From contig WGBD01000004.1 in the NCBI GenBank assembly GCA_015494465.1, positions 68,627-132,626 on the forward strand: a DNA stretch of 64,000 bases, read 5' to 3'. Position 1 is the stretch's first letter, and every line of letters begins with the position of its first letter. This DNA comes from Candidatus Omnitrophota bacterium. GTDB lineage: Bacteria > Omnitrophota > Gorgyraeia > S143-82. This document shows positions 6,373 to 50,300 of this stretch, one piece after another. The notes under the pieces are model-generated. The model saw only the letters and a program-made list of their open reading frames with translations, was not told the origin of the DNA and searched no databases. The translations under genes and the position numbers were made by a program.

Positions 6373-6381
6373 TATAAGATC

Positions 6382-6837: not shown

Positions 6838-6854
6838 TCAAAAAGGAGGGAAGA

Positions 6855-16448: not shown

Positions 16449-17037
16449 TCTCTTCAGCGAGGCGGTTGAACAGTTCCCGCTTCAATGCGTCCAGGTTGGC
16501 CTCCAGCATGGCCTCGAGGTCCAACCTTATCAATATTCCGCTCTCGGGGGCCTCCATGATTATCCCAAATTCTACGGAATCGTCCACTTGAATCCGCAGT
16601 GTGCAGTCCTGGTAGTGGGCCTGGATTACCCTCTGAAGGAGTTCGGCGTCTGCAGGGTGGATCCTGACCACCGCATCCCCTTGGCATTTGGGCATAGCGT
16701 GGTTCAGGAGCCTTAAGAGTATCTGGGAGTACCTGCCCTGATCCGATTTTACGCTCAGCATTGCCTGTCGCAGTCGGGGATAGAAGTCCTGCCATATCTC
16801 TTCCTTGGTCTGGCTCAGGGCAAGGGTCATCTCCTTATAGGCCTTGGCCTTGTATCGGGCAACGAGGGCTATCTTCTCGTGGAGGAATTCGCGCATCTTC
16901 GCCTCTTGCCACTCCTTCAGCTGGGCCTTTGCCTGAGAAAGTTCCCGTTCTTTCACCAGATTGGCCCTGCGGAGGATCTCTTCTACCTGCTTTTCTACCT
17001 TGTCCTTTATGTATTTTTTGAGTTCGTTAACCCCCAA
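16441..17037 (-). CDS. V/A-type ATP synthase subunit E (peripheral stalk)
   Basis: 198 aa. The N-terminal ~110 aa are charged coiled coil. The C-terminal globular part (GIIMEAPESGILIRLDLEAMLEANLDALKRELFNRL) matches the subunit-E pattern xVxNSLxxRLDxxW. It overlaps the upstream F-like gene by 11 nt. Confidence 0.6.
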   Translation of the reverse strand: MGVNELKKYIKDKVEKQVEEILRRANLVKERELSQAKAQLKEWQEAKMREFLHEKIALVARYKAKAYKEMTLALSQTKEEIWQDFYPRLRQAMLSVKSDQGRYSQILLRLLNHAMPKCQGDAVVRIHPADAELLQRVIQAHYQDCTLRIQVDDSVEFGIIMEAPESGILIRLDLEAMLEANLDALKRELFNRLAEENG

Positions 17038-27846: not shown

Positions 27847-28382
27847 ACCAGTTCCGACAACCTGAACAGCGAACGCAGGCTTATCCCCTCCCGGGCCAGA
27901 GACTCCTCCGCACCTTCCTCCCTGTCGACCAAAACCATCGCGGAATCCACCTTCAGGCCCGCAGACCGAAGCACCTCCACCGCCTTTAAGATAGACCCTC
28001 CGGTGGTCGCTACATCGTCAACGACCAGCGCGCGCTCACCTTCCCGAAAGGATGGGCCCTCTATCTGGCTCCTGAGACCGTGGCCCTTGGGCTCCTTGCG
28101 CACTATCAATCCCCGCACCTCTCTGCCCTTCATCCCCGCGCAGGTGATAACCGCCCCTACGATGGGATCCGCTCCCATCGTCAGGCCGGCGACTATGCCT
28201 ATGCCCTCTGACTCCACAACTTCAAGGATCGCGGAGCCTATGAGATAGGCAGTCCTCGAATAGAGACTCACCTTCCTTCCGTCTATGTAGTAAGGGCTGA
28301 TCCGACCAGAGGCGAGTCTGAACTCACCTCTCACCAGCACCGACTTCAGATAATCCCTCAACTCATCCAGGTCAGGTCTCAT
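27843..28382 (-). CDS. pyrE: Orotate phosphoribosyltransferase
   Basis: [34 protein letters not shown]...; PRPP-binding motif [12 protein letters not shown]. The start ATG overlaps the atpB stop (ATGA). The ORF-track extension to 28622 lies inside atpB and is rejected. Confidence 0.85.
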
Positions 28383-29779
28383 AGTCCCGGGGTCCCCTGA
28401 TAATACTTCTCTATAAACTTGGACTTTATCCTGTGCAACTGGCTGGCAGGCAGGATGGAGAGGACCTCCCAGGCGATGTTCAAGGTCTGCTCTATGGAGC
28501 GGTTCTCGTCTTTCCCCTGGGCCAGAAAGCGCTCCTCGAATGCGGAACCGAACTCCAGAAACTTCTTGTCCCTCTCGCTCAACTCCTCTTCCCCTATGAT
28601 GTCCGCAAGGCTCCTTATCCACTGGACCTCGGCATAACTGGCGTACAACTGGTTTGCGACATCGGGGTGATCCTCCCGCGTGCTCCCCTCACCGATCGCG
28701 TCCTTCATCAATCGGGAAAGGCTGGGAGGGAGGTCTATCGGCGGATATATGCCCCTCTGGTGAAGTGCCTGAGACAGAACGATTTGTCCCTCGGTTATGT
28801 ATCCGGTCAGGTCGGGTATGGGATGGGAGATGTCCATATTGGGCATCGTGAGAAACGGTATCAAGGTGATGGATCCCTCTTTCCCCTTCACCCGACCGCA
28901 CCTCTCGTAGAGGTTGGCGAGGTCGGTGTACATGTATCCGGGATAGCCCTTTCGGGACGGGACCTCGTCTCTGGAGGCGGACAACTCCCGTAAGGCCTCG
29001 CAGTAATTGGTCATGTCCCCGATTATCACCAGGACATGCATGTCCTTCTCAAAGGCAAGAAACTCCGCCAGAGTCAGGGCGCACCTGGGGGTGATTATCC
29101 TTTCCTCCGGGGGATCGTCAGCGAGGTTCAGGAACATCGTCACCTTGTCCATGTTGGCGGTGTTCTCCAATACCTCCCGGAAGAAGAGGGCCTCGTCGAA
29201 CCTTATCCCCATCGCAGCGAATACTATCGCAAACTTCTCGGTCTTTCCCGAGACCGTCGCCTGACGAATTATCTGGGCGACTATCTCGTTGTGAGGCAGG
29301 CCCGCCCCCGAGAATATCGGCAGTTTCTGACCCCGCACCAATGTGTTCATACCGTCTATAGCGCTGATACCGGTCTGGATGATGTCCCGCGGATAGTCGC
29401 GGGACATCGGATTTATCGCCAGCCCGTTTACATCCAACTCCTTCTCCGAAACCGGCATAGGATAGCCGTCTATGGGCTTGCCCAATCCGTTAAACACACG
29501 ACCAAGCATCTCTGCAGAGACCCCGAGCATAAACGGCCGTCCGAGAAACCTGACCCGTGCGCTTTCCGGCGATATACCTGCGGTCCCCTCGAATATCTGG
29601 ACCACGATGGCGGACTTGCCTGCCTCCAGGACCCTCCCCAGCCTCTTGGAACCGTCCCCCAATTCCACCTCCACCATCTCACCGTAAAAGACCCCGGGCA
29701 GGGGTGATAGCACCGCTATGGCCCCGCGCAACTCCTTGAAACTCTGGGTCTCCTTTAGCCCCTTAAAAACCGCTTCCAT
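28379..29779 (-). CDS. V/A-type ATP synthase subunit B (non-catalytic)
   Basis: 466 aa; the V-type B family pattern is conserved throughout (...[27 protein letters not shown]...). It is adjacent to and overlaps the subunit-A gene. Confidence 0.9.
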
Positions 29780-31544
29780 ACCTTGCCTCCAACTGAGAGA
29801 ACGCCTCCCGCATCTCCTCCATAAACTCGTCGAACTTCTCCAGTCTGTCGTTGGGGATCTCCTCCTTGAGGCGCATTATTCTGCTGAAGACCTCCATCTC
29901 CAATATCGTCAGTATGTGTATACCCATTGCCAGGAGGCTGCTAGCCCGATCGTAGAACTCCAAAATCACCTCTATTATCTTCGTCGCCTTCTCCGGGGTG
30001 CAGAAGCTGTCCACCTCGCTGTAGGCATTCTGCTGGAGGAATCCCGTGCGGATGAGACGGGCGGTCTCAATGACCAGGCGCTGGGCATCGGGCAGGGCGT
30101 CCACGCCGATTAATTGGGCCACCTTCTCCAGCCTGTCCGCCTCCTGAAGTATGGAGGATATGCGGGTGCGCATCTGACTCCAGGACAGGCCCTTGACCTG
30201 CTCGTCCCACCACTTCGCCAGGTCCTCTACATAACCGCTGTAACTCTCCATCCAGTTTATCGACGGGAAGTGCCTCTGACCGGCCAGCTTCTTATCCAAT
30301 GCCCAGAAGGTCCGCACGAATCGTTTGGTATGCATCGTCACCGGCTCGGAGAAGTCTCCACCGGGGGGAGAGACGGCCCCTATCACCGTTATCGATCCAT
30401 TATTCCCCGAAAGGGCCTCTACATATCCCGCCCGCTCGTAGAACTCGCCCAAACGCGAGGCCAGATAGGCGGGATAGCCCTCCTCGGCGGGCATCATCTC
30501 CAGCCTCCCCGCGATCTCCCGCAGGGCCTCTGCCCACCGACTGGTGGAGTCTGCCATCAAGGCCACATTGTAGCCCTGATCGCGGAAGTACTCTGCTATG
30601 GTGATACCGGTGTATACGCTCGCCTCCCGGGCAGCCACCGGCATGTTAGAGGTATTGGCGATGATAATCGTGCGCTCTATCAGGGGTTTACCACTGCGGG
30701 GATCGTGGAGGTGAGGGAATTCCTCCAGGACCTGGGTGATCTCGTTGCCCCGCTCACCGCAACCTATGTATATGACGATGTCTGCAGATGCCCACTTGGC
30801 CAACTGGTGCTGGGTAATCGTCTTGCCGGTGCCAAATCCACCGGGGATTGCGGAGACCCCTCCCAGGGCCACCGGGAAGAGGAAGTCTATGACCCGCTGT
30901 CCGGTAATCAAAGGTATGGTAGGCTTGAGCCTCCTCCGGACCGGCCTCTTCTTGCGCACCGGCCAGCGCTGGAGCATAGAGACACCCACTGTCTTGCCCT
31001 CACTCGTCTCCAGCTTTAAGACGACATCCGTTATCCTGTACTTCCCCTGCCCAGCGACCCAGATCACGCGCCCCCTTAATCCCACCGGTAGGAGAACCCT
31101 GTGCACCACGAAAGAGGTCTCCTGCACCTCGCCGATAATCTGGCCCTCCTCCAACTCATCTCCTTCGGAAACCTTGGGCACGAATTCCCAGAAGCGAGAC
31201 CTGTCCAAAGGATCGGCCTGCACCCCATTCTCCACGAATATTCCGCTCTTCTCCCGTATTACCTCCAGCGGGCGCTGGATACCGTCGAAGATGTTGCCCA
31301 TAAGACCCGGTCCAAGTTCCACCGATATAGGGAATCCCCTATCCACGACCGCATCCCCGGGCGTTATCCCGGTGGTATCCTCGTAGACCTGAATTATCGT
31401 CTTGTCCCCCCGGACTCCTACTACCTCTCCAACCAGACCGATGTCTCCCACGGATACCTGATTGCCAACCGGGGTAGAGCGCAGACCGGTTGCGATGACC
31501 ACCGGCCCGTTTACCGACCAGACCTCCCCTACAGCACTTGGCAA
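29763..31544 (-). CDS. V/A-type ATP synthase subunit A (catalytic)
   Basis: 593 aa; Walker A GGFGTGKT; characteristic V-type non-homologous insertion region; no intein. Confidence 0.9.
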
Positions 31545-34289: not shown

Positions 34290-37200
34290 TCACTCCTTCT
34301 TTACATACCAGCGAGCACTATATTCCATCGTATCGTAGCCGAAGTCCTGGCTAACCTCCCAAGAGCCTTCCTCGACCGGCAACTCCACCTCAGTCATTAT
34401 CGCGCCCCCCTTCCTGACCAACGACATCACCCATCGCCTGACCGGTAGTTTCTGAGCGTCGTCCAGGTACAATTCTACCACATTGTAGAGGAGCAGGTCT
34501 GCGGGTTTCAGGAAGACCTCCTTGACGATTTCCCGCCAGCCAGGATCGTTGAGGTCGATCGGGATGAAGTGGAACCTGGCCCTCTTTCTCCAGAGCCTTT
34601 GGTCAGGGGTGTACTCGTAGGGGGTGTTGGGTAATCTATGGGGCAACCAGATCTGGCTCTTCGCCTTATCTAGTACGGAAGGTGAGATGTCCAAGAGATA
34701 GAACTCCACATCCAGGTAGGGATGGGTCTTGAGCACTGGGTCCAGTATGTGCATGAGGGTAGCGGTTTCTTCTCCGTAAGACGACCCCACCGAAACGATA
34801 CGGATCCGATTCTCACCTTCAGAGGTGTGTTTTTCGAGTATCTCCGGTAGAAGGTCGTGCTCCAGGAAAAAGTAGGCCCGGGAGTTCCGATAGAAGTCCG
34901 TAGCGTGTACCAACCTGCTTTCCCTGACCCGCAGTTCCGCTACCCTTCTCAAGAGCTCGAGGAGCAGTCTCCGCCAGTTCTTCCGCCATTCTTTACCATG
35001 AGCAGAGACCTCAACCCTCTCTTTGCCCAGCAGTACAGATAAACCGATTTTATCGGCAGGCCCTGATGCCTTTATCTGCGCCAGATCCACCGTTTCCAAC
35101 CTCTCTATCTGGTCCTTCAGCCTCAACACATCCCTAGGGACGAAGCCCAAAAGAAAACCCGGCTGACTAGGTATGTACCCCAGGCCGGTCTGGTACTTGG
35201 AGGCACACCAAAATATGGACTCCGGATAGCTATCCACCTCCATCAGGGCGTTTACCTTCAAGGGACGGAAGTCCGAAACCAGGATGCCGTCCTCCTTGAG
35301 GAGGTCCTTAAAGAGAGCCTCGATGCCAGGCGTCTCTCCCCATAGGTTTTCGGAGGCCTTTAGGAAGGCAACCGAAAACTTTTTGACTCGAGCCATCTCC
35401 CGCAACCTATCCTGAACGCCTAATAGGCCCAGTCGGTGAGAGAGAAATCGCAATCTTCTCAGGGCTTTCTTCCCGGATATAGGGTGCCTCCAACGGAAAA
35501 GGACCTCCACCGCCTCCTCATCCACACGCACTCGTATGTCTTTAGCCCCCAGCAGGTACCTTATCTCGCCCAAGATGTACTTTCCGAGGGCCCCGTTTTC
35601 CCGCAGGCGCTCGCCCAAAAGGAATCCACCTCTCTTCCCAGCGTACTCCAAGTATTCCTGGAACTCGCTAAGAGAGACATCGTCGGGATGATCGCAACTG
35701 CCCCAAGGGATTACATCCACCATGGTGAGCGCCTCGCAATCGAACAGAAAGAAGGGATAAAACACATCCGATCCCGATGCAGGATAAAGAACGGATGAGG
35801 TGTCGTAGTGCTTAAAGTAATCCCAGTAAAGAATCAAAGTAGCCAGTCTTTGTGAAGAAAAGACCGGGACCATCTGGGCCGGCGAGATCTTGGTGAGAGA
35901 AATCAGCTGATCGAACCTAAACTTCTCCAGATCCTCTTGCCTGACGCCAACCGGAGCGATCCTCTCCGTGCGCTCGTAGAACCAAAAAGTGAGAGGTATA
36001 GTCACTCCTACCTTAACTCGCAGGCGCACGACGGTAGGTCTTGCCTCTTTTAATATCTTGATCAAGGCTCGACTGCTCTTTGGGGGCCGTTTGGGTTCCT
36101 TTATCCCGATTATGCTTGCAAACACCTCCTCCAGCTGATCAGCGGTCTTTACCTTCGTCACATCCTTCCAACTCAAACCCGCCCGGGATAACCCGGATTC
36201 GATCTCTATCCTCTCTACCACCTCTTCAGGGATCGCGATGTACTTCTCGTAATAGTGCCTGGTGAAGACCTCCCAGAACCGCTTCAGATACCGCTCGTCA
36301 GATAGGAAGACGAATCTCTCAAAGAGCCGATCCGGTCTAACGCACACGATCTTCCCGGATTCTTTCCTAAATATTCCGGAGATACCCAGCTCTCTGTCCC
36401 AACCGATACCACTACGAAGGAGGAGATCTCGAACCGCTTCCTCCTCCTGCGAATCCAAGGGCCTAGCACTGTCTCGGACCACGGAAAAGTGGAGGACATA
36501 ACCGCGTTCCGTGCGAAGGTATTCCCCGATACGGGCCTTGACCGTTATGTCGTTCTTTTCGAGGAGTTCGACTATCTCCCTTTTGGGCAAGGCATCGAGC
36601 CTGTAGAGTCTGTAGTTTAGGAGGCGATATACATCCTCTTCTCCTTCCACGCTTTGGGCGGGAGTCCTCTTATTGGCGATCTTGATTATCCTCAGGATCT
36701 CCGATCCTTCTTCTCCCGATATAAAGAGGTCGCTAGCCTCAGGCGGTGATTCTAGGGCACCTTTGAGGAGTGCCGTCAGATACTTCACCTGCCACAGTTT
36801 CCACAGCCCAGCTGGCCAAACATAATCCTCATCGTCGTAAAATACGGAGATATTCGGAGGTAAGGTAAACACCTGCAACGCCCCGGCCAGCTGGAGCCTA
36901 AACGCCTTCGGAGACCGCTTGAACAACGAACCCAAGGCCCGATAATAGGCCCCCTTCCTTCGGTGGAAAGGCAACAGGACCACCGCCCTCTTGGCCCCTT
37001 CCGGGAGCTCTCTTTGCATCTTCACGATCCGGTCCATGGGGGAGATCCCCTCGTAGGCCTTTAGTATCGGGGTAGATCTTGAGAGCTCTAGCACCTTACG
37101 AAGGAAGTTCACATCCGCAGGTGTGACCTTTGGCGGGTCCAGGAACGGGAAGTACCTCTCCTTCACCTCCAACAGCTCGGACAGATCCTCCGATTCGGGT

Positions 37201-39197
37201 TGCCTTGGGGGCAGAGAAGATCTTTGGGAGAATAGCTCCCGCTGGACCACGATTCGTATCCACGATTCGGCCCCCTCCCTCGGTGATAAATAGATCTTGG
37301 AAGGCAGACCTGTTTCCCCTACGGATATGTCCACCCTTTTACCTCCGGTCTTGGAAATCACCCTCGCGTACTTGGGGAGCAAGGCCCGCTTACCTTCCCT
37401 CGGTATGTAGAGGTAGTCGCCTTCCAAGACAGACACCTCTACCTCCTTCCCCAAGTCCAGCAACAACTCCCCTGCCTCCCAGGCCAGGGCAAGGGCAAGC
37501 GGGGTGCCTTTTATCCCGATGCGGAGCCTATCCCTACCTCGCATCCACTCCACTATCTCCCGGGTGTCGATCTTGACTCCTTCTCCTTTCAGGAAAGAGA
37601 ACATCTCTGCCAGCATCCCGTTCTTGCCTTTTACCTCGAGATCCACGGGCCGATCCGCGTAATGGGCAGACAAGACCAGTAGAAGGCCTGCGAGGTCCAA
37701 GACCCTATCCCGGGGCAAGTTCAATTCCCTAAGGAACTCCTTTATCGTGCTCCTGGCAAGCTGGATCTGGTGAGAAAAGTAAGAATCACCTGCCTCTTCA
37801 GATGAGATCCGATCTATCATCCGGTCGTACAGCGGGCCGAGTATAGGCAGAATGGCTTCCAGCTCCTCCCCAGAGAGGAAGGAGGCCAGGAATTCCCTGC
37901 CCTTCCCTCCGAGGTACTGCCACTGGATGAAGTTGATCACCAACTCTTCCCAGCTCTCTCCCTCGGAATAGTAGAGCCCCTTAAATCGAGACTCTATCGC
38001 CTCCAGGTCGAGTCGCTCTCGGGTAAGCCTCTTGGCTCGCGGTAGTAGTCCAGCGATCTTAGCATCCGAGGCGATGAGGTGGTGGAGGAGCTCGTGGAAG
38101 TGGACTACCTGAGGCGTGAGATCCAGCCCTGTCTCCTTCCTGAATAGGTCCTGCAACACGGATTCTATCAACGCGATCCTCTCTTCTGGCTCGCCGATGG
38201 ACCTAAGGTAGTCCCGCAACAGCACTGCTCTGGATATCCTCTCGTCCAGATAGCCAACTCCGTGGACAGCGATCCAGTCGATCACCTCCTCCTTCACGCC
38301 CAATCCCTTCAGCCTCTCTATCCATCCTTCCAGTATCGAGAGAGGCAAAGAAAAGGCAGGGTGCACTCGATTGGCCTTGAGCTCTATCCTCCGCCTCACT
38401 AGGTTGGCCCTGGGCAAGAACGAGAGCAATGGCTCCGGGATGAGCTGGGACCTTACCCCAGGAGGCCCTTCGTCTCCGCCTGGAAGAGGGTATATGACCT
38501 TTACCTTTGGGAAGTGCGCCCTCAAGTATCTCTCTATCCTTCGAAGGTGATAGCCACCCAGTACCACTGCCACTCGATCGTGCTTCGAAAGGGCTTGGGA
38601 TATCTGTCGAAGGAAGGCCTTCTCCCTTCGTCTGGAGAAGGAGTAAAAGGCGATTACATCCCTCAAGGCCTCGAGATCACCCCCACCTATGTCCAAAATC
38701 CGATAGAACTCCCCTGGGGTAATACGCAGGAGCACCGCCCTCCGAAAGAGGTCCACATCTATCAGTCCAGTGCGGTAAAGGTAGTCCAGTAGCTCTGTGC
38801 GATGGGAAGTGACCCAATGGAACATCTGGAGGTGGCGCAGATAGGCGTCTTTGTCCTCTAGACCCAGTAGTGTCCCACCCCTTTCGTAGGCCCAAAACTC
38901 CGCCCCGGAGAGCATCCCGCCCTCTACCAGAACCCTGACTTCTCGCGATGTGCAGCCCTTAAGAAAGCTGAGATCCGCCTTTCCCCATCCCCCTTCGCAC
39001 AGGACGACTTCAGGAGATAGCCTTGAGAGGCTGTCCGCTATCTCCAGTTGTACCTTAGGATAGTAGTGGAGGTCTGCGATCAGATAGAGGCCCTTTCTGG
39101 CCCCCCCATAGGCCACCGGAGCAAGCAAAAAGACCAAGCAAAAAAAGAGGCCTAACCGCTTAAAAAACACCCCGCCTCTCAACTGCATACGAGCCAC
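34290..39197 (-). CDS. Giant hypothetical protein (1635 aa) with an N-terminal signal peptide or membrane anchor and a C-terminal CheR-like SAM-dependent methyltransferase domain
   Basis: N-terminus MARMQLRGGVFFKRLGLFFCLVFLLAPVAYGG. The C-terminal region (nt ~34293-35075) carries RIRIVSVGSSYGEETATLMHIL and DLLLYNVVELYL, which resemble the CheR motifs RIWSAGCSTGEEPYS and DLIFCRNVLIYF. The stop lies 3 nt from the fadD-like start. Confidence 0.8.
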   Translation of the reverse strand: MARMQLRGGVFFKRLGLFFCLVFLLAPVAYGGARKGLYLIADLHYYPKVQLEIADSLSRLSPEVVLCEGGWGKADLSFLKGCTSREVRVLVEGGMLSGAEFWAYERGGTLLGLEDKDAYLRHLQMFHWVTSHRTELLDYLYRTGLIDVDLFRRAVLLRITPGEFYRILDIGGGDLEALRDVIAFYSFSRRREKAFLRQISQALSKHDRVAVVLGGYHLRRIERYLRAHFPKVKVIYPLPGGDEGPPGVRSQLIPEPLLSFLPRANLVRRRIELKANRVHPAFSLPLSILEGWIERLKGLGVKEEVIDWIAVHGVGYLDERISRAVLLRDYLRSIGEPEERIALIESVLQDLFRKETGLDLTPQVVHFHELLHHLIASDAKIAGLLPRAKRLTRERLDLEAIESRFKGLYYSEGESWEELVINFIQWQYLGGKGREFLASFLSGEELEAILPILGPLYDRMIDRISSEEAGDSYFSHQIQLARSTIKEFLRELNLPRDRVLDLAGLLLVLSAHYADRPVDLEVKGKNGMLAEMFSFLKGEGVKIDTREIVEWMRGRDRLRIGIKGTPLALALAWEAGELLLDLGKEVEVSVLEGDYLYIPREGKRALLPKYARVISKTGGKRVDISVGETGLPSKIYLSPREGAESWIRIVVQRELFSQRSSLPPRQPESEDLSELLEVKERYFPFLDPPKVTPADVNFLRKVLELSRSTPILKAYEGISPMDRIVKMQRELPEGAKRAVVLLPFHRRKGAYYRALGSLFKRSPKAFRLQLAGALQVFTLPPNISVFYDDEDYVWPAGLWKLWQVKYLTALLKGALESPPEASDLFISGEEGSEILRIIKIANKRTPAQSVEGEEDVYRLLNYRLYRLDALPKREIVELLEKNDITVKARIGEYLRTERGYVLHFSVVRDSARPLDSQEEEAVRDLLLRSGIGWDRELGISGIFRKESGKIVCVRPDRLFERFVFLSDERYLKRFWEVFTRHYYEKYIAIPEEVVERIEIESGLSRAGLSWKDVTKVKTADQLEEVFASIIGIKEPKRPPKSSRALIKILKEARPTVVRLRVKVGVTIPLTFWFYERTERIAPVGVRQEDLEKFRFDQLISLTKISPAQMVPVFSSQRLATLILYWDYFKHYDTSSVLYPASGSDVFYPFFLFDCEALTMVDVIPWGSCDHPDDVSLSEFQEYLEYAGKRGGFLLGERLRENGALGKYILGEIRYLLGAKDIRVRVDEEAVEVLFRWRHPISGKKALRRLRFLSHRLGLLGVQDRLREMARVKKFSVAFLKASENLWGETPGIEALFKDLLKEDGILVSDFRPLKVNALMEVDSYPESIFWCASKYQTGLGYIPSQPGFLLGFVPRDVLRLKDQIERLETVDLAQIKASGPADKIGLSVLLGKERVEVSAHGKEWRKNWRRLLLELLRRVAELRVRESRLVHATDFYRNSRAYFFLEHDLLPEILEKHTSEGENRIRIVSVGSSYGEETATLMHILDPVLKTHPYLDVEFYLLDISPSVLDKAKSQIWLPHRLPNTPYEYTPDQRLWRKRARFHFIPIDLNDPGWREIVKEVFLKPADLLLYNVVELYLDDAQKLPVRRWVMSLVRKGGAIMTEVELPVEEGSWEVSQDFGYDTMEYSARWYVKKE

Positions 39198-39257: not shown

Positions 39258-39347
39258 CCGTGGGGGACGATCGCGTTCAACATCTCAACCGTCAGCAGTT
39301 AATAATATAGCCCGATCTGCGAGCTTCGTCAAGTTTATTTAAACATT

Positions 39348-42300
39348 TTAAAAACCTATGTCAATACCTCCGTGCCCTTCCTGTTTCTCTCCGTTTTCTT
39401 CTAGCCAAGCTTCCACCTCGTCCTCAAACTCGAAGATCTCCTCCAAAGCAGACGGTCCGGATTCACTTAAAAGTCCCTCCACCAGAAAGCTCACCAGGGC
39501 CGTTTCCGCTTCCTCTTCTTCGGGCAGGGCCCCGTTGGCCCTAAGCCAGGTGATGAACTTAAGGTGCCTTTCCTTGCGATTCCTCGTCTCGCTAAGACGC
39601 TTCAGAACCCACGGATCCGACAGCACCTTTTCTGCGGTAGGGGGTAATCTGTACAATCCCAGGAAATTCCCCATCTCTTCCTCCAACCCCTTGGCCTTCG
39701 CCAAGTCCCTCACCACTCCTCCAACGGATCTTCTCCCTGCAACTCCCCTAGGAGCTAGTAGCGAGGCGATCCCCTCGTCCATACCTTGACTTAAACGGGT
39801 GCGAATCCTCTCCTCGAACTCGGACTTCAAGGTCCGCAACAGCTCTATCCTGCTCCTCGCAAGCTGAAGTGAGGCGATGTGGACTGCATTGATCAACTCC
39901 ACCCCAGGGAAAGGCCCGTTCAGAGGCCCGAGGTCGTCGGTGTCCTCCCTCCCCTCGAGGTTCCAACGGAATTCAAAGGAGCGCAGGTCCTTCAAAAAGG
40001 CCTCTATTCGGTCCGGAGAGAGGTAGACCAGTCTCTCTTCCAAGGCCTTTTTTATCCTATTTACAGTATCAGGAGTGAACTTATAGACATCGGGGAGCTC
40101 TTCTGAATATTCGAATGCCTCCAAGAGGATAGGGACCAGGTCTAGGGACAACCCCTGCCGTCGAAGGAGTGTTTTGAGGACATCCTCGTGGATGTAGCCA
40201 ACACCCCTGGCGTAGTACAGGAGACGGGGGGCGTCGAACCTGTAAATCGCGACCCCAGGGAACAGCTCCTCGTCTTTCACCTCCAACTTACCCGAAAGCC
40301 AATCCACATAGAGGCGAGAGCAGAAGAGAGACACCTGTCTCCCCAAACTTGTCCAATCAATCCGTTTACGCACCCAGTCTTCGTAGTTCCGGCCCCCTAA
40401 GCCCTCGTAGGCGGTGCGCAGGACCCGTTCCAGCCCCAGTGCTACCTCCTCCGGGTCTTTCCACCATCCGGGATGGTGTTTGTCCAGCCACAGGATGTAG
40501 AGGTTCATCAAGGCGAAAAAGACCTCCCCCGAACGCTTGGCGTACGACTCCCAACTCCCCGGTAGCTCCTCTATCTCCCCGAAGTCCGCCATACCCCCTT
40601 TGCGGAAGTTTCCCCTGGCAAATGCCCTCCTCCAGTTGGTCAGCCTCCCCACCCCGAACCTGATTGCGGGACCAACCTCCCTGCTTCCTCTAATGAACCT
40701 CTCCGGTTCCACGAACAACTCGTACCTCCTGCCCAGTTCTCGATTGTGAAAGGCATTGACTAGACTGCGATAGTAAAGGCCAAGCGGGTAGAGACGACGG
40801 AGGGTGTCCACGCATAACCCCAGGGCTCCCCAGAAATTTCCTTCTTCCAGGTCTTCGGGATAGATGAAGAGATCCGGCGACTCCACCTCGTATACCAGAA
40901 AGGGGATCCCTTCTGCACTTTCGTCCAACTGCAGGGCAGGATTCGACCTCTTTATCCCCGCTCGGACCTTCTCCAAATCCGGACTGTCCCCAGCCAGAGA
41001 GAACAAGATTCCCCCCTTGAAATTCCTCACTAAGTGGGGGATCTCCTGTCTAATACCGAGGATTTCGGCATTTTCCCTGAGAAAGGTTATCACCGCGCCC
41101 TCCTGCCTCAACTCCTCTACTCCTCCGTCCAAGGCAAACTTTATTCGATACCACCTATCCCCTAACTTGAGCGTTAGGTTTCTCCCTTGAAAAGCAACCC
41201 TATCCCACGGGATCTCCCCTAAAACACGAGAAAGCGAGGACACCTTCTCAGGCGGACTGTCGTCTCGGTATCGGGAGATGCTCCCCAGAGAATTCGTCGG
41301 AGGGGACAGATCCTTGCCTAGGTAGTACACCGCAGGGAGAAGCAAGTACATCCAAGAGAAGCCGTCCCCTGCATCCATAAGATCCAAGAATTCCTCCTCT
41401 ATCCTATGCCTCCTCACATACGAGATCACCTTCCTCCAAAATCCTTCCGGCAGTTCCTCACCTTCCAGAAGGGGCCAGTACCTATCCGGGATCCGTATAC
41501 CTAAGTCTGCCAGGCGGGAGATCCCCACCAGAAACTCGGTATCCCTGCCCTTGAAGACCTCTTCACTGCCCGCTAGATCCCTCTTCTCCAGCAGGGACAT
41601 CGCAGTGAAGGCGTAAAGGGCCTTTATCAATTCGGTTATCGGGTAGGGCCCGTTCACCGGGCCGAGGTCTTCCTTCCCCCGTTCTCCGGCTGCATTCCAC
41701 TTCATCTTGTATTCCCCGAATATCCTCTTGGCCCTTTTCTTCAGCTCCTCCGGCCAGTCCATCTCCTCTATCCGCTCGTCAACATCCATCGGAATGAAGT
41801 ACTCTCCCCGCAAGTCACTGCCTAGGATCACATTACCCAACAACTCCTTGCTATCTATCCCCAGCTCCTTGGCGACCTTGTCTATCTCCCGGGAAGAGAT
41901 AGTCCCCCATCCTCTCATCTCTTCGTCCATTTCCTCCCTATCGGCAGGCGTGATAGAGGCCTCTGCAGGATAAGGCAAACCATCTCCACTCCTAACCGCC
42001 TCTCCGTACTCTCCCGAGCAAAAGACGAGCATTTGCCTGGCCATCAGTTCGAAGTCTATGTAGTCCATCACCGCATCGAGGGCCTCTGCACGAGGATTCA
42101 AGACCTGATAGGCATAAGAGAAGATCCTCTTCAAGGACCTCGCCACCTTAGGCGCGTACCGATCCGGATCCCTAAAATACTCCGGATGGTGGTCCAATAG
42201 GTACATAGCGTAGAGGTGGAACCACACGAATAGAACCCTCCCCGTATACTCAGCCCAATCCTCGGGTACTGCCACCGTTTGCAGTTCCTGAAAGTCCCAA

Positions 42301-44315
42301 AACCCACCAACGCGCAGGTTGGGATTCTGCATCCAGAACCTCCAGGCATCCATACGCCCAGCAGACCAAAGGCTCTGCCAACGCCCCTCCGCGAGAAATC
42401 TCCTTAGGGACTGGGACCAGTTATATCCCTCTTCCCGCCTAAGCAGGTTGTGGAACATAGTCGCAACTGCGGGGACCACGATCCTTGCCCGGGCCAACTT
42501 CATCAAGGTGTCTATGTTCTTGATGCTGGCAATAAAGAACTCCTCGTCGTCCTTCGCCTCTTGTAGATAACGGGAGAAGTCCTCCGCGTTCGGGTAGACT
42601 ACGAATACTCCCTCCCGGGAAAAAGCGAATTCCGGATCCCACCTTTTGGCGTCCGCTTCCCCCTTCTCCAGCAGGGCGTATAACCGAGGGTGTTTCTCTA
42701 AATCGATCCGAAACAAGAAACTCCCATTCCGCTCCAAAGGGGCTGGCACCTCTTGAATTATCCCCAATCTCTGCGCATTTTCCCTAAGCCACTTGGCCCG
42801 CAAGGCGTCTAGAATCAGATCTTCGTACCCAGCACCTGCCTTGAGAAACTTTATTCGATAACCCTTGAAGACGACCGTCCTACCTTGCACCTCTGCACCG
42901 CCAACCGAAAAGCCAGGGATCAGCGAAGCCATGTCCTCCACCTCGTTGATCTTTGCCATCCAATTCGATCCCGAAAGCTCCAGTTCCGTTGGAAAGGACG
43001 GATCTGCCTCTGTCAAAGAGGCCAAAGTATCTCCCTCCAGTGCGCCCAAGGCAAGGATCAACAAGTAGGGTGCGCTCGACAGGGCAACCCCACCTCCTTG
43101 GAGCTGGATCGTGATGGGCTCTTTAGAGGTCCATCCTCTGTTAAGGATGGATCCCCCTGCCAACGAGGAGAAGATCTCTCCCATCAAGTAGAGGTGTCTT
43201 TCCCTGGCCTTTATTCTGTCCAGCATCCTCAGGATCTTCTCTGAGACCTTAGGTATGTATCCCGCTGTAGAGAGCTTTCTAAAGTAGTCTCCCAACGAAG
43301 AATTCGGATGGAGCCTTAACCACGCCAGGTAGGTAAGCGAAAGCAGGTGAGGGGCATTCCCGTAGATTTCTTTTTCCGGGGAACTCAGGAGAGAGAGAAT
43401 CTCCCTTGCGAAGACCGTGAGGTCACAGGAAGGCTCAGAGCTGGCGAATACCTCGAGATCCAGTAGGTAAAGGTTGTGGATAAGGTGCCTTAAGGCCTCT
43501 TGGCTGTTCAATATCCCTTGTCCATATCCGGCCCTTATCCAACCTCGCACCATCTCCAAGGCCTTAAGCAATCCCTCGCTGTGATGGACTATCCCGTAGT
43601 TAGTCAACAATTTCTTAGGAGGAGTTGTCAAGATCGCCTCCTCCCACTCCGAAAGCCTCACCTCCACATCCGCACCGTCACAGCGCAGGATGATGCCCCC
43701 CACAGCCCCCTCGCTGAAAAAGACGGACTCAAGATAACTGTCTAGGAGCGACCTCAAAGGCCGATCTCCTTCCCCTCGAGCCGTCAACTCCACCGGCCTG
43801 ACGAAGTATCCCTTTCGCCTTAGCCACTCCGTCCACATCGCCTTATAGAGCAGGCGCAGGTCGGAAAAGGCGTCGGATTCGTTGACCACGCGGGTAAGTT
43901 CCTCTTCCAAGCGCTCTTCTGTGAGGCCGTCACCTATCCCTTCTACCTCCACCCGAAAGGGAGTGCCCTCGAACTCGACCTTACCAGCCCTTATCACAAG
44001 CCTTGGCCTGTTACCGATTATCCAACAGCGAAAGAGCCCTTCCGTTTTCTCTACCTCCTCAAAGGAGGACAACGCCTTCACGGTCTGTCTCTTCAGCTTC
44101 AGGTCTGCGGAGAGCAAAAGGCCGGCCAGATCCTCGGATAGTCCTGGAGAGAATATCCTGCCGTGGGGCCCTACCGGGTGCAGGTCTACCCACACCTCCA
44201 AGTTCTTGAGGGAGCAGATCTGAGGACTGAGAGAAGGCAGGTCTGCCTCAGCCCAGGCAATCGCTCCACCCAGAAGGAGCAAGGATAAACCCAAGCACAA
44301 AAATCCCTTTCTCAT
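39348..44315 (-). CDS. Giant hypothetical secreted protein (1655 aa) containing an internal ~450-510-aa tandem duplication
   Basis: Signal peptide MRKGFLCLGLSLLLLGGAIAWAEA. Repeat copy 1 is roughly residues 480-990 and copy 2 roughly residues 1050-1500. Shared blocks include YRIKF(L/A)..G, HHPE/HHPG...DPD/DPE and DLGPVNGPYP / DLGPLNGPFP. The acidic C-terminal tail is EEEEAETA...EDEVEAWLEE. Confidence 0.8.
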   Translation of the reverse strand: MRKGFLCLGLSLLLLGGAIAWAEADLPSLSPQICSLKNLEVWVDLHPVGPHGRIFSPGLSEDLAGLLLSADLKLKRQTVKALSSFEEVEKTEGLFRCWIIGNRPRLVIRAGKVEFEGTPFRVEVEGIGDGLTEERLEEELTRVVNESDAFSDLRLLYKAMWTEWLRRKGYFVRPVELTARGEGDRPLRSLLDSYLESVFFSEGAVGGIILRCDGADVEVRLSEWEEAILTTPPKKLLTNYGIVHHSEGLLKALEMVRGWIRAGYGQGILNSQEALRHLIHNLYLLDLEVFASSEPSCDLTVFAREILSLLSSPEKEIYGNAPHLLSLTYLAWLRLHPNSSLGDYFRKLSTAGYIPKVSEKILRMLDRIKARERHLYLMGEIFSSLAGGSILNRGWTSKEPITIQLQGGGVALSSAPYLLILALGALEGDTLASLTEADPSFPTELELSGSNWMAKINEVEDMASLIPGFSVGGAEVQGRTVVFKGYRIKFLKAGAGYEDLILDALRAKWLRENAQRLGIIQEVPAPLERNGSFLFRIDLEKHPRLYALLEKGEADAKRWDPEFAFSREGVFVVYPNAEDFSRYLQEAKDDEEFFIASIKNIDTLMKLARARIVVPAVATMFHNLLRREEGYNWSQSLRRFLAEGRWQSLWSAGRMDAWRFWMQNPNLRVGGFWDFQELQTVAVPEDWAEYTGRVLFVWFHLYAMYLLDHHPEYFRDPDRYAPKVARSLKRIFSYAYQVLNPRAEALDAVMDYIDFELMARQMLVFCSGEYGEAVRSGDGLPYPAEASITPADREEMDEEMRGWGTISSREIDKVAKELGIDSKELLGNVILGSDLRGEYFIPMDVDERIEEMDWPEELKKRAKRIFGEYKMKWNAAGERGKEDLGPVNGPYPITELIKALYAFTAMSLLEKRDLAGSEEVFKGRDTEFLVGISRLADLGIRIPDRYWPLLEGEELPEGFWRKVISYVRRHRIEEEFLDLMDAGDGFSWMYLLLPAVYYLGKDLSPPTNSLGSISRYRDDSPPEKVSSLSRVLGEIPWDRVAFQGRNLTLKLGDRWYRIKFALDGGVEELRQEGAVITFLRENAEILGIRQEIPHLVRNFKGGILFSLAGDSPDLEKVRAGIKRSNPALQLDESAEGIPFLVYEVESPDLFIYPEDLEEGNFWGALGLCVDTLRRLYPLGLYYRSLVNAFHNRELGRRYELFVEPERFIRGSREVGPAIRFGVGRLTNWRRAFARGNFRKGGMADFGEIEELPGSWESYAKRSGEVFFALMNLYILWLDKHHPGWWKDPEEVALGLERVLRTAYEGLGGRNYEDWVRKRIDWTSLGRQVSLFCSRLYVDWLSGKLEVKDEELFPGVAIYRFDAPRLLYYARGVGYIHEDVLKTLLRRQGLSLDLVPILLEAFEYSEELPDVYKFTPDTVNRIKKALEERLVYLSPDRIEAFLKDLRSFEFRWNLEGREDTDDLGPLNGPFPGVELINAVHIASLQLARSRIELLRTLKSEFEERIRTRLSQGMDEGIASLLAPRGVAGRRSVGGVVRDLAKAKGLEEEMGNFLGLYRLPPTAEKVLSDPWVLKRLSETRNRKERHLKFITWLRANGALPEEEEAETALVSFLVEGLLSESGPSALEEIFEFEDEVEAWLEENGEKQEGHGGIDIGF
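39816..41168 (-). repeat. Intragenic protein-level tandem repeat, copy 2, within the 1655-aa protein gene
   Basis: Residues ~1050-1500 align with ~480-990 (e.g. ERGKEDLGPVNGPYPITELIKALYAFTAMSLL versus EGREDTDDLGPLNGPFPGVELINAVHIASLQLA). Confidence 0.6.
41346..42878 (-). repeat. Intragenic protein-level tandem repeat, copy 1, within the 1655-aa protein gene
   Basis: See copy 2. The nucleotide sequences have diverged, so this is not a recent DNA duplication. Confidence 0.6.
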
Positions 44316-44330: not shown

Positions 44331-47300
44331 CTAAAACTCCAATCTCAAGAGGAGGTGATCCCTCTTCTTAAACTGGCCCTTTCTCCCTTCGAAGACAGGC
44401 CTGTCCCCTTCAAAGCGATAGACGAACCCATACGGGTGATAGTTTACATGAATTTTAGGGTAGTCTCTCCCAAAGCTATTTATCCTGTCCACTACCGAGG
44501 CCATCTGGCGAAGGCCTTTGACCGTGAGGTCCACGGCGATGTCTACATCTGAAGATTCCCTAAACCTACCTCTCAACAATCCACCGGTGAGGTAGATCCC
44601 CTTGGCTAACCTCTCCAAAACCAAGGGCTCGATCACTCGGAAGTAATACCGCTGAAGCTCTTCCCATATCTGCCCAAGCTCTAAGGGATTTACCATGCGT
44701 GGGAGTCGGTTCTCTGCCCTTACGAAGATCAACGGCTTAGTGACCGTTCCTCGAGAAGGTACATCTATAGAGACTTCGTCGTCAGCGACTATAATCTCAA
44801 ATGGATGGACCTCTCTCAATTGCCCCAAGACATCCTGGAGCGAATACCTCGGACGCACACCAGAGCCTTCACCTACCCAAGGCAAGATCACCAAGATTTC
44901 ACCCCGATCCCTGAGCACCCTGCTGGCCTCGGTAAAGGTGCGAACGATACCCTCTTTATCCAGACAAGACAGACTAAAGGGATAGAGGAGCAGGTCGAAG
45001 GAGGAGTTAGAAAAGGGCAGGTCCAACATGTCCGCCCGTACAACGGTAACTCCTTTTCTCCTCGCAAGCAATGGCATCTTCGGATCTATGTCGAGGCCAA
45101 TCACGAGATTTTTTCGAGCCAAAAGGGACTCAAAGCTCCCCTCTCCTGCCCCTAAAGAAAGGATCCTCTTCCCAACTATCTGCTTCCCTAAGAAATAAGA
45201 TAGCTCTGGATGGGCAGAGATGGAGAGGAGTGGATGAAAATTTCTGTGACCAGTCATAGGTGAGGATGGGGTCTCCGTCCGCTTTAGCACCAAGGAATCC
45301 CCCCACATCCCGACGATCTCGAACCGCAATCCCCTAACTATACCGTCCCAATCTATCTTCTCCACCACATCGAAAAACCAGTCGTCCATAGGCATTCTCA
45401 CATGGACCAGCTCTAGACAATCCGTTATCTCCTCTTGCCTGCGGACTACCGCCTTCACCGCACGGCTGAAGACCCTGGCCAGCAATTCGGGTCTAGTGTC
45501 TGGATGGGCCTTATTTAATTCCAAGTGGACATAAGCCTGCCTTCCATCTGGAGAATACATGACTTGAAAACGGAACAGGGGCTCGGGATAACTAGTCCCT
45601 TTTGGATTCTGGGGACCGTATTGAATAAAGTAGAGCTCGTAGAGCCCGAGAGCGCCTTCTCTGACCGCACGGAGCTCCGTGCGTACAAACGGCACGATCC
45701 TGCCCTTCCTGAGGGAGGAGGAAACTCCCTTCTGCAGTATAGAGAAGTCCTCTCCTCTCACTACCGGCGAAAATTCAGGGCCTAGCATTTCCAACCTATT
45801 CCGCACGAAAGGTTTCTCGAACGGATGGTAGAGCATCAAAAGCGCCCCCGGTCGAAGCGTTTCCTTGAATTTTTTAAACAGCTGATCCTCGTAACCGAGG
45901 TATTCTCCGCCAAAGTACTGATAGCAAGAACAGAGGAAGTAGTATATGCCGTCCGCGTCTGAGAGGTCTTTTTCCAGTGCATTCGCGTTGGAAAATTCTA
46001 CATCGGGCAGGGCTAGTCCTATTTGCCTCCCGAGCTCTCGGCTGAACGAGACCAATTCCCGATCGTACTCTATTCCCACCACCTTTGCTTGCGGAAACGC
46101 CTTTTTCAAGAGGAAGGCAACCCTCCCGTCTCCACTTCCTACCTCGTAAATCCTGCTCAATCTAATCGCGTTGGCAGAAGAGAAAAACCTCAGATCGTGA
46201 AGACCGGGTAATATCTTTAAGAGCCTGGACGGTACGAACCTGCCCATGTCCCTGACCAATCTATCCGAGATCTCCTCGTATTCGTCCAACCCTTGGATCG
46301 TCATCTCTAGCTTGCTGGCGTACTCTAACAAAGCCGGATCGCTGTAGCCAAAGCTCCTGAAGCTCCGGATCTTGACCTGATCTGGGCCCGCGGTCGTTTC
46401 TAGTCCAGAGACGACGTTAGAGAAGTCAATCCTCCCTTGAAGCGTCCGCGGGGACCCCGGCACTGCCACGCGATCCTTGATCCCGAAGGTCTCATACAAG
46501 GATGTCCTGGGCATGAACACCTGAACCGATGACACCTCCTCTTTCAACATCTCCATCAGCGCGAAGGCGAGGATTAATCTACCCAGCCCCTTTCTCCGCC
46601 ATCCGTGATTCACCCAAAAATCGAAATCCCCCCACTCTCCAATGAAAGCCCTGTCCAGATTACCCAACACGGAATACCTAAGGAGCCCGATCCTTCCGTT
46701 GCCCTTCTTCAGGTGGGCGGTTATCCACCTCTGGAACCTACTACTGGAAAGGGAAAGGGATATAGGTATCCCCTGCAAATCCAACTCCGCCAGGTCCCTT
46801 TCTACCAGAGAAGAGGCGCTCTTCTTGCGCATCTCCCGGATCCGCACATTGGAGGGGTCGGTGACCTCGGTAACGAACCCAAGACTCCTGTGAAACCAGT
46901 CCTTCCGCCACCAATTACCCCCGTAAGATAGGATCGAGACTCTATCTTGGTCTATCCCTCGAATCCCAATTCTAGAGAATAGGTCCGTTGGATATAACAG
47001 GAACAATCTAAAGTATGCGGGAGAAAGGACCTCCTTTCTGGTGCTCCCTCGCAGAGGGAGCTCACAGCCCCTCACCGACAGGAATAGATCCGCAGGATTG
47101 AGGAAAACAGCCCTTCTGCCTTCCAAGCAATCGAGTTTGAACTTGGGGACATCCTCGCCTCTTACCCAATCCTTGTTGGCCAGGAAGAGGGTCCTCAAGA
47201 GGAAGTACTTGGATACCTCGCTCTCTATCTCATCCACTAGACGACGAATCAGGGGTATCCTCTGGGAGAACGGCCTTTTGTTTTTATAAAGGGCGGACAA

Positions 47301-50300
47301 CAGATCGATCACCTCAACGTCTTTTTCCCTCAAGAGTTGGCGCATGTATTCCAGACCAGTTTCCCTTAGCTCACCGTCGCCTCCGAGTGCCATCACTCCT
47401 ACGCGCACCGAGTGAGCTTCCCCAATTAATCCCTTCAGCATAACCGCCACATCAAGGCACATAGAATCGGTGTTAGGAGAACGGATGTACCTTTCTGGAT
47501 GGAACTGACGATTGCCATTGCGCAAAGGATAGGGTATACGCATCAGGATGTCCCCACCCATGTCGAGGAATACGAACGAATGTCTCCCCGGGAGGGCGGT
47601 TCGAGCGACACCTGCCAGTCCCTTGGCCAGATCAAATCCAGACCTATTCAGGTCGAATATCACTACCTCAGCATCCTCTCCTGCGGAAGAAAATAGAGCA
47701 TAGACTCTGCTCTCCGCTAGTGGCCTACGATCTCCACCGTTCAGGTAAACATCAGGAGAATTGACTCTATAAAATCCGTCTGCACCACGCCAGCGGGGCA
47801 ATGGCCGGCCATCTCGCGTCTCTAACCTGCGGATGGGATACGGTCCTATCGCCTTCTGCTCGACAGCCCGCTTCAGATTGGGGCTGTACAGGAGGAGCTT
47901 CACATCCCTCCCTTTGGGTATACCAGGTAGGGGAATAAGTCCATCCTTGGCCAGGAGTCCTAGCAAACTGGCCCCCAATATGTCCCCTCCACCGCCCGCA
48001 GATACGATGTGCAGGTAGTGTTTGGTCCTATCCCCGGTTAAGGAGGACGGTCCAAGGTATCGCCTCCTAGAGGTATCCACATACCTGGCAAGACCGACCT
48101 CCAGATCGAGCCACAGCTCCTGCTCCCCCTCCTCTCGCTTTTTCTGTAGGTACTCGTATACCCCTCTATCCAGGATCAGACCTGGACGATACTCCTGGAA
48201 AGCCTCCACCACCCGTGCCCCCTCTAAACGGGTTAGATCAAAGCCGATCCTGAGTTGAGTCCCCTTTCGGGACTGGAGGTAGAGACAGCACTGGGCATCT
48301 CGGTACCTGTCAGGCCAATCCTTACAGAGTTGAGGGCGCCTGTCGTACAGCGCGCACCCGCACTCCACCCACAACAGATCAGGATTGTGAGGGGAGACCC
48401 TGATGTTCACCGACAGCCCTTTGCAAGGGTACTTTATCCCGAAGGTGGAGAGACTGGTATATGTCCGAACTGCAACTGCACGGTTCAACGGGGATATATT
48501 CTGAGAAAACGATCGAATAAGCCCCTCCCTAGCCAAGGCGTATCTTATGGGACCTGGGAAGAGCTCACCGGGATGGAAAAAGCAGCACAGTCCGTCTATG
48601 CAAAGTCTTCGCTCCTCTTTCACAAACGGCCAAAATACCGCTTCTTTCAAGGAGGACGCTTGAGTAGATATCCTGATCTTGCTCATCACCAGATCCTTCT
48701 CACTAACATCCCCAGGGACCCAGCGAAAGGAGGTGATGAGCTCCAGATCTCGTTGGGAGAACTGACTTACTTGCCTTGGAGAAAGACAGACCTCAACGGA
48801 CTTGACCGCCTCGGGATAGAGCAAAACCGCTCCCACAGCACCTATTACCCTCCGTATAGCGTCCCTCCCCTCGAGACCGCTCTGCAGGTAAAGGTTAATC
48901 AATCCCTCACGATATCTGCCCTTTTCGTGGACGGGCACATCCTCGTCTAGGATCCAGCTTCCGCGGTGATAACCGGTGGCCCTGGGGGGGAGCAGTCGAG
49001 AAATAGAGGCCCTCTTTATGTAGTCCGGGCCCACCATCAAGACCTTTTCCTCTTTACCAACTGCCAAGACATCGTCCTCCACCCGCAAGCCAAGCTTTTC
49101 CCCAAATTCGCGGAACTCTGCCTCTACCCGAGATGGATCGTCCATTTTCCTTCCGCTGAGCAGTATCACGCGGTTCCACGGTAGAAGGCCGTCCACATCC
49201 GAACCCGGCAGGGCCCGTTCCCTCACTATCGATCCAGTTAGGTAGATGTCGGACAACTCTACCCCTCCCATCTTCATCCAGTCTATAAACCCCTTTATCC
49301 CCAGTCTCACCAGGTGAGAATACTGCACCAAGAAGGGATCCAGCCAGGTCCATATGTGCTGAGAGCCACCACTTAAGGCCAAGGAGTTGAGGGCAACCAG
49401 GTATCCTAACACATCACCTATCCTCACCGAATCGTAGAGGTTGGAGAATAGTTCGTCCACACTATTGGTTCTAAGCGAGAACAGGCGTCTCATTCGGACA
49501 AAGCTCAGTTTAGTGGACAATAACTCGTAAGGGAAATCCCTGGATGTAATTAGACGGTACCGGCAATTGATAGGGATAGGGCCTATCAGGTTGTCAGGAG
49601 CGCGGTCTTCTTCCAAGATAATCTTGGTACCAAACATGCGCTTTCCACCTTCCCGCAGGACATCGAATACTTCTTTATCTCCTAGGATCCTCCCCAACCT
49701 AATGACATCGTCCCGCTTGGGCAGCAACCACACATACATCGCCTTCTCTAGATCTTCGGGTAAGAATCCGTACTCCAATAAAATCTTACCCAATATAGGA
49801 TTCCAAACCGCTCCCACGAGCACATCTTTGTGAGGGAACTGCGTGCGCGCCAAGGACACTATGTACCTGACGACCCTTCCACCCCACCCCCTACCTCGCT
49901 GGTGGACCTCTAAATAAGGGATAAATATAGCCTCCTTGGTATTCACGATCCCCACGGTGGCAACGGTCCTACCCATCTCGTCAGCAATCTTTAGTTTTTG
50001 GACGAAGGAATTATCGTTCAACGAGGAACTGACCTTATCTACGAACTCCCTAGGGCTCGTCTCTCGGAATATGTCCAGATCTCCTGCTGAGATGTAGCCT
50101 CCCTGCAAGAGGGAAGACCTTACCCAGCCCTTAAAGTGCTTCCACGAACTGTCCGGGAAGAGGTTTACCTCCGAGGCGTGGGATATCTTCTTGGTTTGGA
50201 TAAGCGTAGATACATCCAAGACCGAGTTGAGGGTAAGTATGTCCGGGAGGAAGGCGTATATCCCGCTCTGGGAGAAAGAGGAGACCAACCACTTGCGGGT

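Follow-up and report, generated by a model that had tools for sequence, protein, structure and literature searches.

A very divergent CheR-type methyltransferase domain at the end of a long, predicted exported Omnitrophota protein encoded beside a tandem SidJ-like protein

To our knowledge, CheR is known almost solely as the adaptation enzyme of chemotaxis. It methylates the gamma-carboxyl group of protein glutamates with S-adenosylmethionine (SAM), and the same group is the target of SidJ, which activates it with adenosine triphosphate (ATP) by adenylylation and then glutamylates it. For glutamylation by SidJ the residues K367, H492 and D542 are essential and N534 is important, and SidJ homologues have been noted in other bacteria (PMC6858067). 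A life as predators or parasites, with giant proteins that are secreted or displayed at the surface, has been proposed for the Omnitrophota (PMC10066038), and 46% of the long proteins of this phylum have been read as membrane-anchored with cytoplasmic domains (10.64898/2026.06.07.730766). Here we describe a gene pair from a Candidatus Omnitrophota bacterium, located in a stretch of 64,000 nucleotides (contig WGBD01000004.1, positions 68,627 to 132,626) that we call the window. The first gene (34290..39188, the target) encodes a protein with a predicted signal peptide and a CheR-type domain at its C-terminus, and the second (39348..44315, the partner) encodes a protein with two SidJ-like domains. 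Both lie on the minus strand, as do all features below unless a plus strand is given. We propose, with a probability of roughly 0.45, that both proteins are exported and, as a pair of effectors, modify the glutamate carboxyl groups of proteins in another cell.

The target open reading frame (ORF) covers 34290..39197 and encodes 1635 residues in a single frame from a GTG. In the database the protein (P0001) begins with the ATG at 39188, three codons inside the GTG at 39197, and a GGAG-like ribosome-binding site is found about 10 nt 5' of this ATG. The gene in this form covers 34290..39188 with its stop codon at 34290-34292. It encodes 1632 residues, and this numbering is used for the target protein throughout. 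The segment 34293-35075, to which a first-pass annotation made from the letters alone had drawn attention, translates into the last 261 residues of the ORF (1375-1635), and both strings quoted there, RIRIVSVGSSYGEETATLMHIL and DLLLYNVVELYL, are present. Alignment of the three known orthologues shows conservation over the full length of the protein.

The C-terminal ~210 residues of the target (residues 1423-1632, 34293..34922) are a very divergent CheR-type class-I methyltransferase domain. This catalytic domain of a SAM-dependent enzyme is identified by Pfam, profile comparison, AlphaFold/Foldseek and alignment. PF01739 (CheR) is the sole Pfam family in the target; its score of 36.7 bits (E 3.9e-9) exceeds the gathering cut-off of 27, and the same hit is precomputed for all three orthologues (P0001, P0002 and P0003). 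The match spans only positions 2-96 of the 195 positions of the Pfam profile. A domain profile built on the last 248 residues of each of the three orthologues matches CheR of Bacillus subtilis (5ftw) at E 4e-7, with profile positions 39-213 lying on CheR residues 62-229. The second half of the domain is recognized as well, because this match spans the whole catalytic domain. In the AlphaFold2 model of residues 1085-1632 the CheR part has a predicted local distance difference test (pLDDT) value of ~80. Its ten top Foldseek matches in the PDB are all CheR structures (E 1e-9 to 2e-7; 5y4r, 5xlx, 5xly, 5y4s, 5ftw, 1bc5 and 1af7), and the model superposes best on 5xlx, the catalytic domain of CheR1 alone (TM-score 0.68). 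A CheR-like methyltransferase at the C-terminus was what the first-pass annotation had claimed, and a search with the PF01739 hidden Markov model was the check that it named. The significant Pfam match, the 5ftw match and the Foldseek top ten bear the claim out.

An exhaustive hmmsearch with the domain profile over 1.84 billion representative proteins gave 2858 matches at E<=1e-3. All nine that we checked among the matches listed are PF01739 proteins in a Pfam scan. Most of these nine are ordinary CheR proteins of 270-290 residues that carry CheR_N, and some are fusions with TPR or CheB/PAS/kinase parts, including a CheB-CheR-PAS-kinase fusion (P0033). In this search only two representatives lie below E 1e-30 and the next relatives appear at E 2e-15. 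A word-index search of 5.8 billion proteins returned three clusters, which correspond to P0001, P0002 and P0003. P0002 is a syntenic orthologue, 79% identical to the target, and P0003 is a full-length orthologue with 33% identity. Profile scans of metagenome contigs found no additional loci for the target family or the partner family. The target family is very rare.

The target domain was aligned with ten canonical CheR proteins and with CheR of Salmonella, whose sequence matches the segment of 1af7 and has R, D and Y at positions 98, 154 and 235. Arg98, the GEE loop, Asp154 and Tyr235 are the SAM-binding and catalytic residues of Salmonella CheR. All of these have counterparts in the target. 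Arg1434 in the sequence TDFYRN (34887..34889) aligns with Arg98 of the FFRE motif. The SAM loop of motif I, VSVGSSYGEE (34767..34796), corresponds to WSAGCSTGEE of CheR, with GEE formed by G1472-E-E1474. Asp1500 at the end of strand beta2 (YLLD, 34689..34691) aligns with Asp154, the ribose-binding acidic residue. The motif DLLLYNVVELY (34467..34499) corresponds to D-x-I-F-C-R-N-V-x-I-Y of CheR and contains Asp1564, which is invariant, and Tyr1574, the equivalent of Tyr235; in the alignment ADLLLYNVVELYL stands opposite D-x-I-F-C-R-N-V-x-I-Y-F. The equivalents of Arg98, Asp154 and Tyr235 and the GEE loop are invariant in 3/3 known orthologues despite 33-37% identity (~37% within the CheR domain, 33% overall). 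Judged from this alignment, the machinery for SAM binding and methyl transfer looks intact. Lost catalysis, which the first-pass annotation had offered as an alternative, is not indicated, as the SAM-binding and catalytic residues are kept.

The target domain is a member of the CheR superfamily, but it is not a chemoreceptor CheR. CheR_N (PF03705) has no Pfam match in the target even at E<=10, whereas the canonical CheR proteins from the hmmsearch do carry it. The NCBIfam CheR equivalog (PRK10611, EC 2.1.1.80) scores 12.8 bits against a cut-off of 435. In 3/3 orthologues a 13-residue gap is found opposite TGPHEGLVRVRQE of Salmonella CheR, the glycine-rich, pentapeptide-binding loop of the beta-subdomain. 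Thus the chemoreceptor-recognition parts are absent from the target, since the protein has no CheR_N and only a shortened beta-subdomain. The three neighbouring proteins show no enrichment of methylation motifs of the receptor type (EExxA[ST] or its extended form). Chemotaxis genes (MCP, CheA, CheW or CheB) are found neither in the 64-kb window nor in the related loci L001 and L002. The unusual context of a CheR domain with no chemotaxis genes nearby, already remarked on in the first-pass annotation, therefore holds for the entire window.

The topology of the target was assigned by rules (charge of the n-region, length of the core and residues at -3/-1) together with a hydropathy scan. The scan shows a single hydrophobic segment, located at the N-terminus, in agreement with the segment seen in the first reading. 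A Sec-type signal peptide is predicted here, MQLRGGVFFKRLGLFFCLVFLLAPVAYG|GA (39105..39188), with an n-region of +3, an uncharged stretch of 19 residues and a cleavage site placed by the same rules. The net charge of the n-region is +3, +3 and +1 in the three orthologues and the uncharged stretch, rich in G and P at its end, is 19, 16 and 18 residues long. Small residues occupy the -3/-1 positions in all of them, namely AYG|GA in the target, ANA|GT in P0002 and GLA|SK in P0003. By the same rules the signal-peptide pattern is also present in both partner orthologues and in a giant protein of another Omnitrophota locus (L003, see below). The target N-terminus is thus probably a Sec signal peptide that sends the bulk of the protein outward. 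Even if the signal is not cleaved, the bulk would be located outside because a positively charged n-region stays inside (positive-inside rule). An uncleaved anchor with the bulk of the protein in the cytoplasm had been proposed earlier, but the n-region charge and the -3/-1 residues predict the opposite. An export signal on a SAM-dependent enzyme remains contradictory, because an anchor with a cytoplasmic bulk is unsupported. A lipoprotein signal was also considered and rejected; the residues before the Cys form no lipobox, and the Cys is missing from P0003.

The partner gene (39348..44315) encodes 1655 residues with a textbook signal peptide, MRKGFLCLGLSLLLLGGAIAWA|EA (GGAIAWA|EA), and two tandem SidJ-like kinase-fold domains. 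Pfam gives no match for this protein. A phmmer search against PDB sequences aligns residues 475-746 with SidJ 348-607 at E 1.5e-6, and the family profile gives E 2e-6. This first SidJ-like domain (42078..42893) keeps R352, K367, H492, N534, D542 and D545 (as E) of SidJ, and the equivalent of R522 is also kept. In the partner, K367, H492, N534 and D542 correspond to K489, the H of FHN, the N of NLR and the D of WDFQE. The second repeat (residues ~1040-1480, 39876..41198), with the motifs QGR, YRIKF, FHN, GRL-NWR, NFRKGG and ADFGE, is 30% identical to the first (E 3e-34) and has the same key residues. The partner is the sole neighbour conserved beside the 33% orthologue of the target (locus L001), where it shows 32% identity at E 1e-83. 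A word-index search with the partner returned two close orthologues only. Our literature search found no paper tying SidJ to Omnitrophota. A sigma-70-like promoter candidate, TTGACG-17-TATATT (39304..39332, 10/12 positions, a match to consensus only), lies in the 155-bp gap between partner and target. The target gene may thus be transcribed also on its own from this site.

On the reading we favour, target and partner would both be exported and would serve as an effector pair, neither as chemotaxis nor as housekeeping enzymes. Both enzymes would aim at the gamma-carboxyl groups of protein glutamates, where one would leave a methyl ester and the other an adduct of adenosine monophosphate (AMP) or glutamyl. 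The site of action would be the interior of another cell (host or prey), or a place in contact with its cytoplasm. The CheR-type domain would methyl-esterify glutamates of its target proteins with the SAM of that cell. Action in the cytoplasm of another cell is suggested because SAM, ATP and glutamate are not supplied by the periplasm of the producer.

Several points weigh against this proposal. The only secretion-related genes in the window are a T2SS-F/MshEN-type pair of the type II secretion/type IV pilus kind, ~30 kb away from the target, and no translocation system or delivery mechanism for the two proteins was identified in the window. Cleavage and orientation of the signal peptides come from rules only. 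That enzymes of cytoplasmic type should stand behind signal peptides is a contradiction already noted, and left unsolved, for other long proteins of the phylum (10.64898/2026.06.07.730766). The functional link between SidJ and CheR is taken from the chemistry of the model enzymes. The pairing of target and partner is seen in two lineages (three genomes), and the L001 contig ends within the partner gene. In the CheR domain itself 'CRN' of CheR is replaced by 'YNV' and PF01739 aligns over the first half of its model only, and methyltransferase activity is therefore plausible but unproven.

The same observations can be read in other ways. If the hydrophobic segment were an uncleaved anchor and the whole body stayed in the cytoplasm, the CheR domain could methylate an endogenous protein, for example the product of the neighbouring giant gene or the partner, with the SAM of the cell itself. 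The cofactor problem would then vanish, as SAM, ATP and glutamate are found in the cytoplasm only. An uncharged stretch of 16-19 residues is at the upper range for a signal peptide, the giant gene and the L003 giant protein carry normally cytoplasmic domains (Radical_SAM, kinase, GNAT), and the published reading of 46% of the long Omnitrophota proteins is of this kind. However, an n-region of +1 to +3 predicts that the N-terminus is inside and the bulk outside. No second hydrophobic segment is present that could return the chain, every orthologue has small -3/-1 residues, and the AWA|E site of the partner is that of a textbook signal peptide. A membrane-bound enzyme in the cytoplasm is the chief alternative to our proposal, but we regard it as unlikely. 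An exported CheR domain could also be a pseudoenzyme, binding or scaffolding other proteins, perhaps on glutamate-rich or helical segments of the giant protein. The lack of any known methyl donor outside the cytoplasm would fit this, and so would the strong divergence of the domain (next relatives at E 2e-15, compared with 1e-122 within the family), its half-model Pfam match, the change of 'CRN' to 'YNV' and the shortened beta-subdomain. Yet SAM-binding and catalytic residues that are invariant at ~37% domain identity are unexpected of a dead enzyme, and the partner keeps the catalytic SidJ residues in both of its repeats. A non-catalytic role is, in our judgement, distinctly improbable.

A CheR of chemotaxis or adaptation that has been fused to extra domains and methylates chemoreceptors encoded elsewhere would be the conventional assignment. 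The nearest characterised relatives of the domain are indeed chemotaxis CheR enzymes, and CheR fusions exist (with TPR, or as CheB-CheR-PAS-kinase in P0033). The domain is nevertheless without CheR_N, its receptor-pentapeptide region is deleted and its equivalog score is far under the cut-off. In addition, the protein has a signal peptide and no che genes occur within 64 kb or in either related locus, and the words chemotaxis and flagell- are absent from a survey of the Omnitrophota (PMC10066038). We can hardly credit this assignment. An exported pair directed at glutamates is thus the reading that we retain, at the probability given above.

The part of the target before the CheR domain matches no known family. 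Some 1400 residues had been described as being of this kind in the first-pass annotation, and Pfam finds no further family in the protein. A head domain follows the signal peptide (residues ~31-236, ~210 residues, 38481..39098) and contains the motifs IADLH, EGGWGKAD, SGAEFWA, RRE and VVLGGYH. In a scan of species-representative genomes it occurs elsewhere in one place only, the N-terminus of the L003 giant ORF. This ORF of more than 3500 residues (L003:9773-20380, plus strand; Candidatus Omnitrophota metagenome-assembled genome JAQTRP010000002.1) has a signal-like start followed by the head domain, which is interrupted by an insertion of ~140 residues, and then HEAT repeats, Radical_SAM, GT2 and HATPase_c. 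Such a distribution suggests that the head is an N-terminal building block used repeatedly among long Omnitrophota proteins. AlphaFold2 models residues 29-480 with a mean pLDDT of 60, and the head domain gives no Foldseek match below E 0.06. In Pfam only DUF5682 appears, sub-threshold (E 0.18 and 0.035). Only the order of the head motifs (xxxH, E, R, GxxH) resembles that of the Tiki/TraB family. A Tiki/TraB/PrgY/ChaN hydrolase is unsupported by profile or fold, given the Pfam and Foldseek results and an hhalign probability of 0.3% against YbaP of Escherichia coli.

Further along the chain, an HExxH motif (H365-E-L-L-H369, 38082..38096) is found within TPQVVHFHELLH. It is invariant in the alignment, lies on a helix in the AlphaFold model and could form the site of a zinc metalloprotease; this region matched no family. 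A middle domain (residues ~1110-1350, 35139..35861) carries the invariant motifs YPASGSDVF, MVD, PWGS, FLKASENLW and GYIPSQPGFLL, whose order recalls a Rossmann methyltransferase. It has no match in Pfam or the PDB, and AlphaFold2 gives no usable fold for residues 1085-1384 (pLDDT <50). We considered that the YPASGSD domain could be a second, duplicated CheR/methyltransferase domain. This is not supported by hhalign, which finds no profile similarity to the CheR domain (probability 0.3%). A PADLOC scan for defence systems returned nothing for either target or partner.

The target-partner pair is preceded on the same strand by a giant gene (44331..63998), which runs off the end of the window. 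The C-terminal 6555 residues of its product are visible here, and the protein has 8047 residues on contig JALUEM010000002.1. Its first 3333 residues visible in the window have no match in Pfam or the PDB. The last 3200 residues contain an APH-type kinase, two GNAT domains, UPF0489, a LOG/SLOG domain, a nucleotidyltransferase, DUF1152 and two class-I methyltransferases. The LOG/SLOG domain matches solved LOG enzymes at E 4e-23.

Downstream of the target lie an acyl-CoA-type ligase, DUF763, the V-type ATPase A and B subunits and housekeeping genes, and the remainder of the 64-kb window is ordinary chromosomal metabolism. This downstream synteny is retained in the 79% orthologue and lost in the 33% orthologue. 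The DUF763 gene and the ligase are wedged between V-type ATPase subunit A and the target with gaps of few bases. The V-type ATPase subunits themselves are split, with E at 16441..17037 and A and B at 28379..31544 (minus strand). At 2824..8060 on the plus strand, a protein of 1182 residues with GGDEF and AAA_16 is followed by an MshEN-domain ORF and then by a gene of the T2SS-F family.

An intact-looking CheR domain behind a signal peptide, tied to a SidJ-like enzyme, points to glutamate methylation outside chemotaxis. The CheR superfamily is well known. The architecture of the target (signal peptide, head, HExxH, middle domain and a CheR domain without receptor-recognition parts) is undescribed in the literature that we searched, and so are its pairing with a tandem SidJ-like protein and its placement beside a giant multi-enzyme gene. 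A literature search for secreted CheR-type enzymes returned nothing relevant. The locus sharpens a puzzle of the Omnitrophota, namely export signals on long proteins full of cytoplasm-type enzymes. In a bolder form of our proposal, which we consider doubtful, the Sec-exported pair of a predatory or parasitic Omnitrophota-like bacterium would put alternative marks, a methyl ester and AMP or glutamyl, on the glutamates of its host or prey. If true, no effector of the CheR family and no SidJ-type system outside intracellular pathogens would have preceded these two. The role of enzyme-rich giant-gene loci in this phylum would then also become open to biochemical tests. The two proteins have ~1600 residues and one clear assay each (methyl transfer for the target, ATP-dependent adenylylation or glutamylation for the partner), and they are far easier to express and assay than the giants.

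Compared with known systems, the target shares with CheR (PF01739; 1AF7/1BC5, 5FTW, 5XLX/5Y4R) the class-I Rossmann catalytic domain and, within it, the FxR(N/E) arginine, the GEE SAM loop, the acid after strand beta2 and the tyrosine of IYF. It differs by the absence of CheR_N, a beta-subdomain that is 13 residues shorter and 'YNV' in place of 'CRN'. Here, the domain ends a 1632-residue protein with a signal peptide and is found without chemotaxis gene context. In the exhaustive hmmsearch the gap from E 1e-122 to E 2e-15 sets the family apart from other CheR proteins. The closest known relatives of the partner are SidJ and SdjA (6K4K, 7MIR), calmodulin-dependent glutamylases of Legionella with a pseudokinase fold. 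SidJ, an effector at work in a foreign cytoplasm, resembles CheR in modifying a glutamate carboxyl group of proteins. Unlike SidJ, the partner has two tandem copies of the domain and a Sec signal peptide rather than a Dot/Icm signal. Its role as a glutamylase is predicted only, and the calmodulin-binding IQ region was not seen, no search for IQ having been made. Its host lineage is an environmental bacterium, not Legionella.

Many unrelated modifying-enzyme domains in very long exported polypeptides are also known from MARTX multi-effector toxins and from the 'polyvalent proteins' of phages and conjugative elements. At this locus, in contrast, no MARTX repeats, autoprocessing cysteine protease domain or mobile-element context were seen. 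Long and giant multi-enzyme proteins have been described in the Omnitrophota (West-Roberts et al. 2023, preprint; 10.64898/2026.06.07.730766; Seymour et al. 2023). The main text of these papers mentions neither a CheR domain nor a SidJ-like partner. The mix of methyltransferase, GNAT, kinase and LOG domains in these proteins matches that of our giant gene. The target, with only 1632 residues and one hydrophobic segment, differs from these giants, but in both a signal peptide is combined with enzymes of cytoplasmic type.

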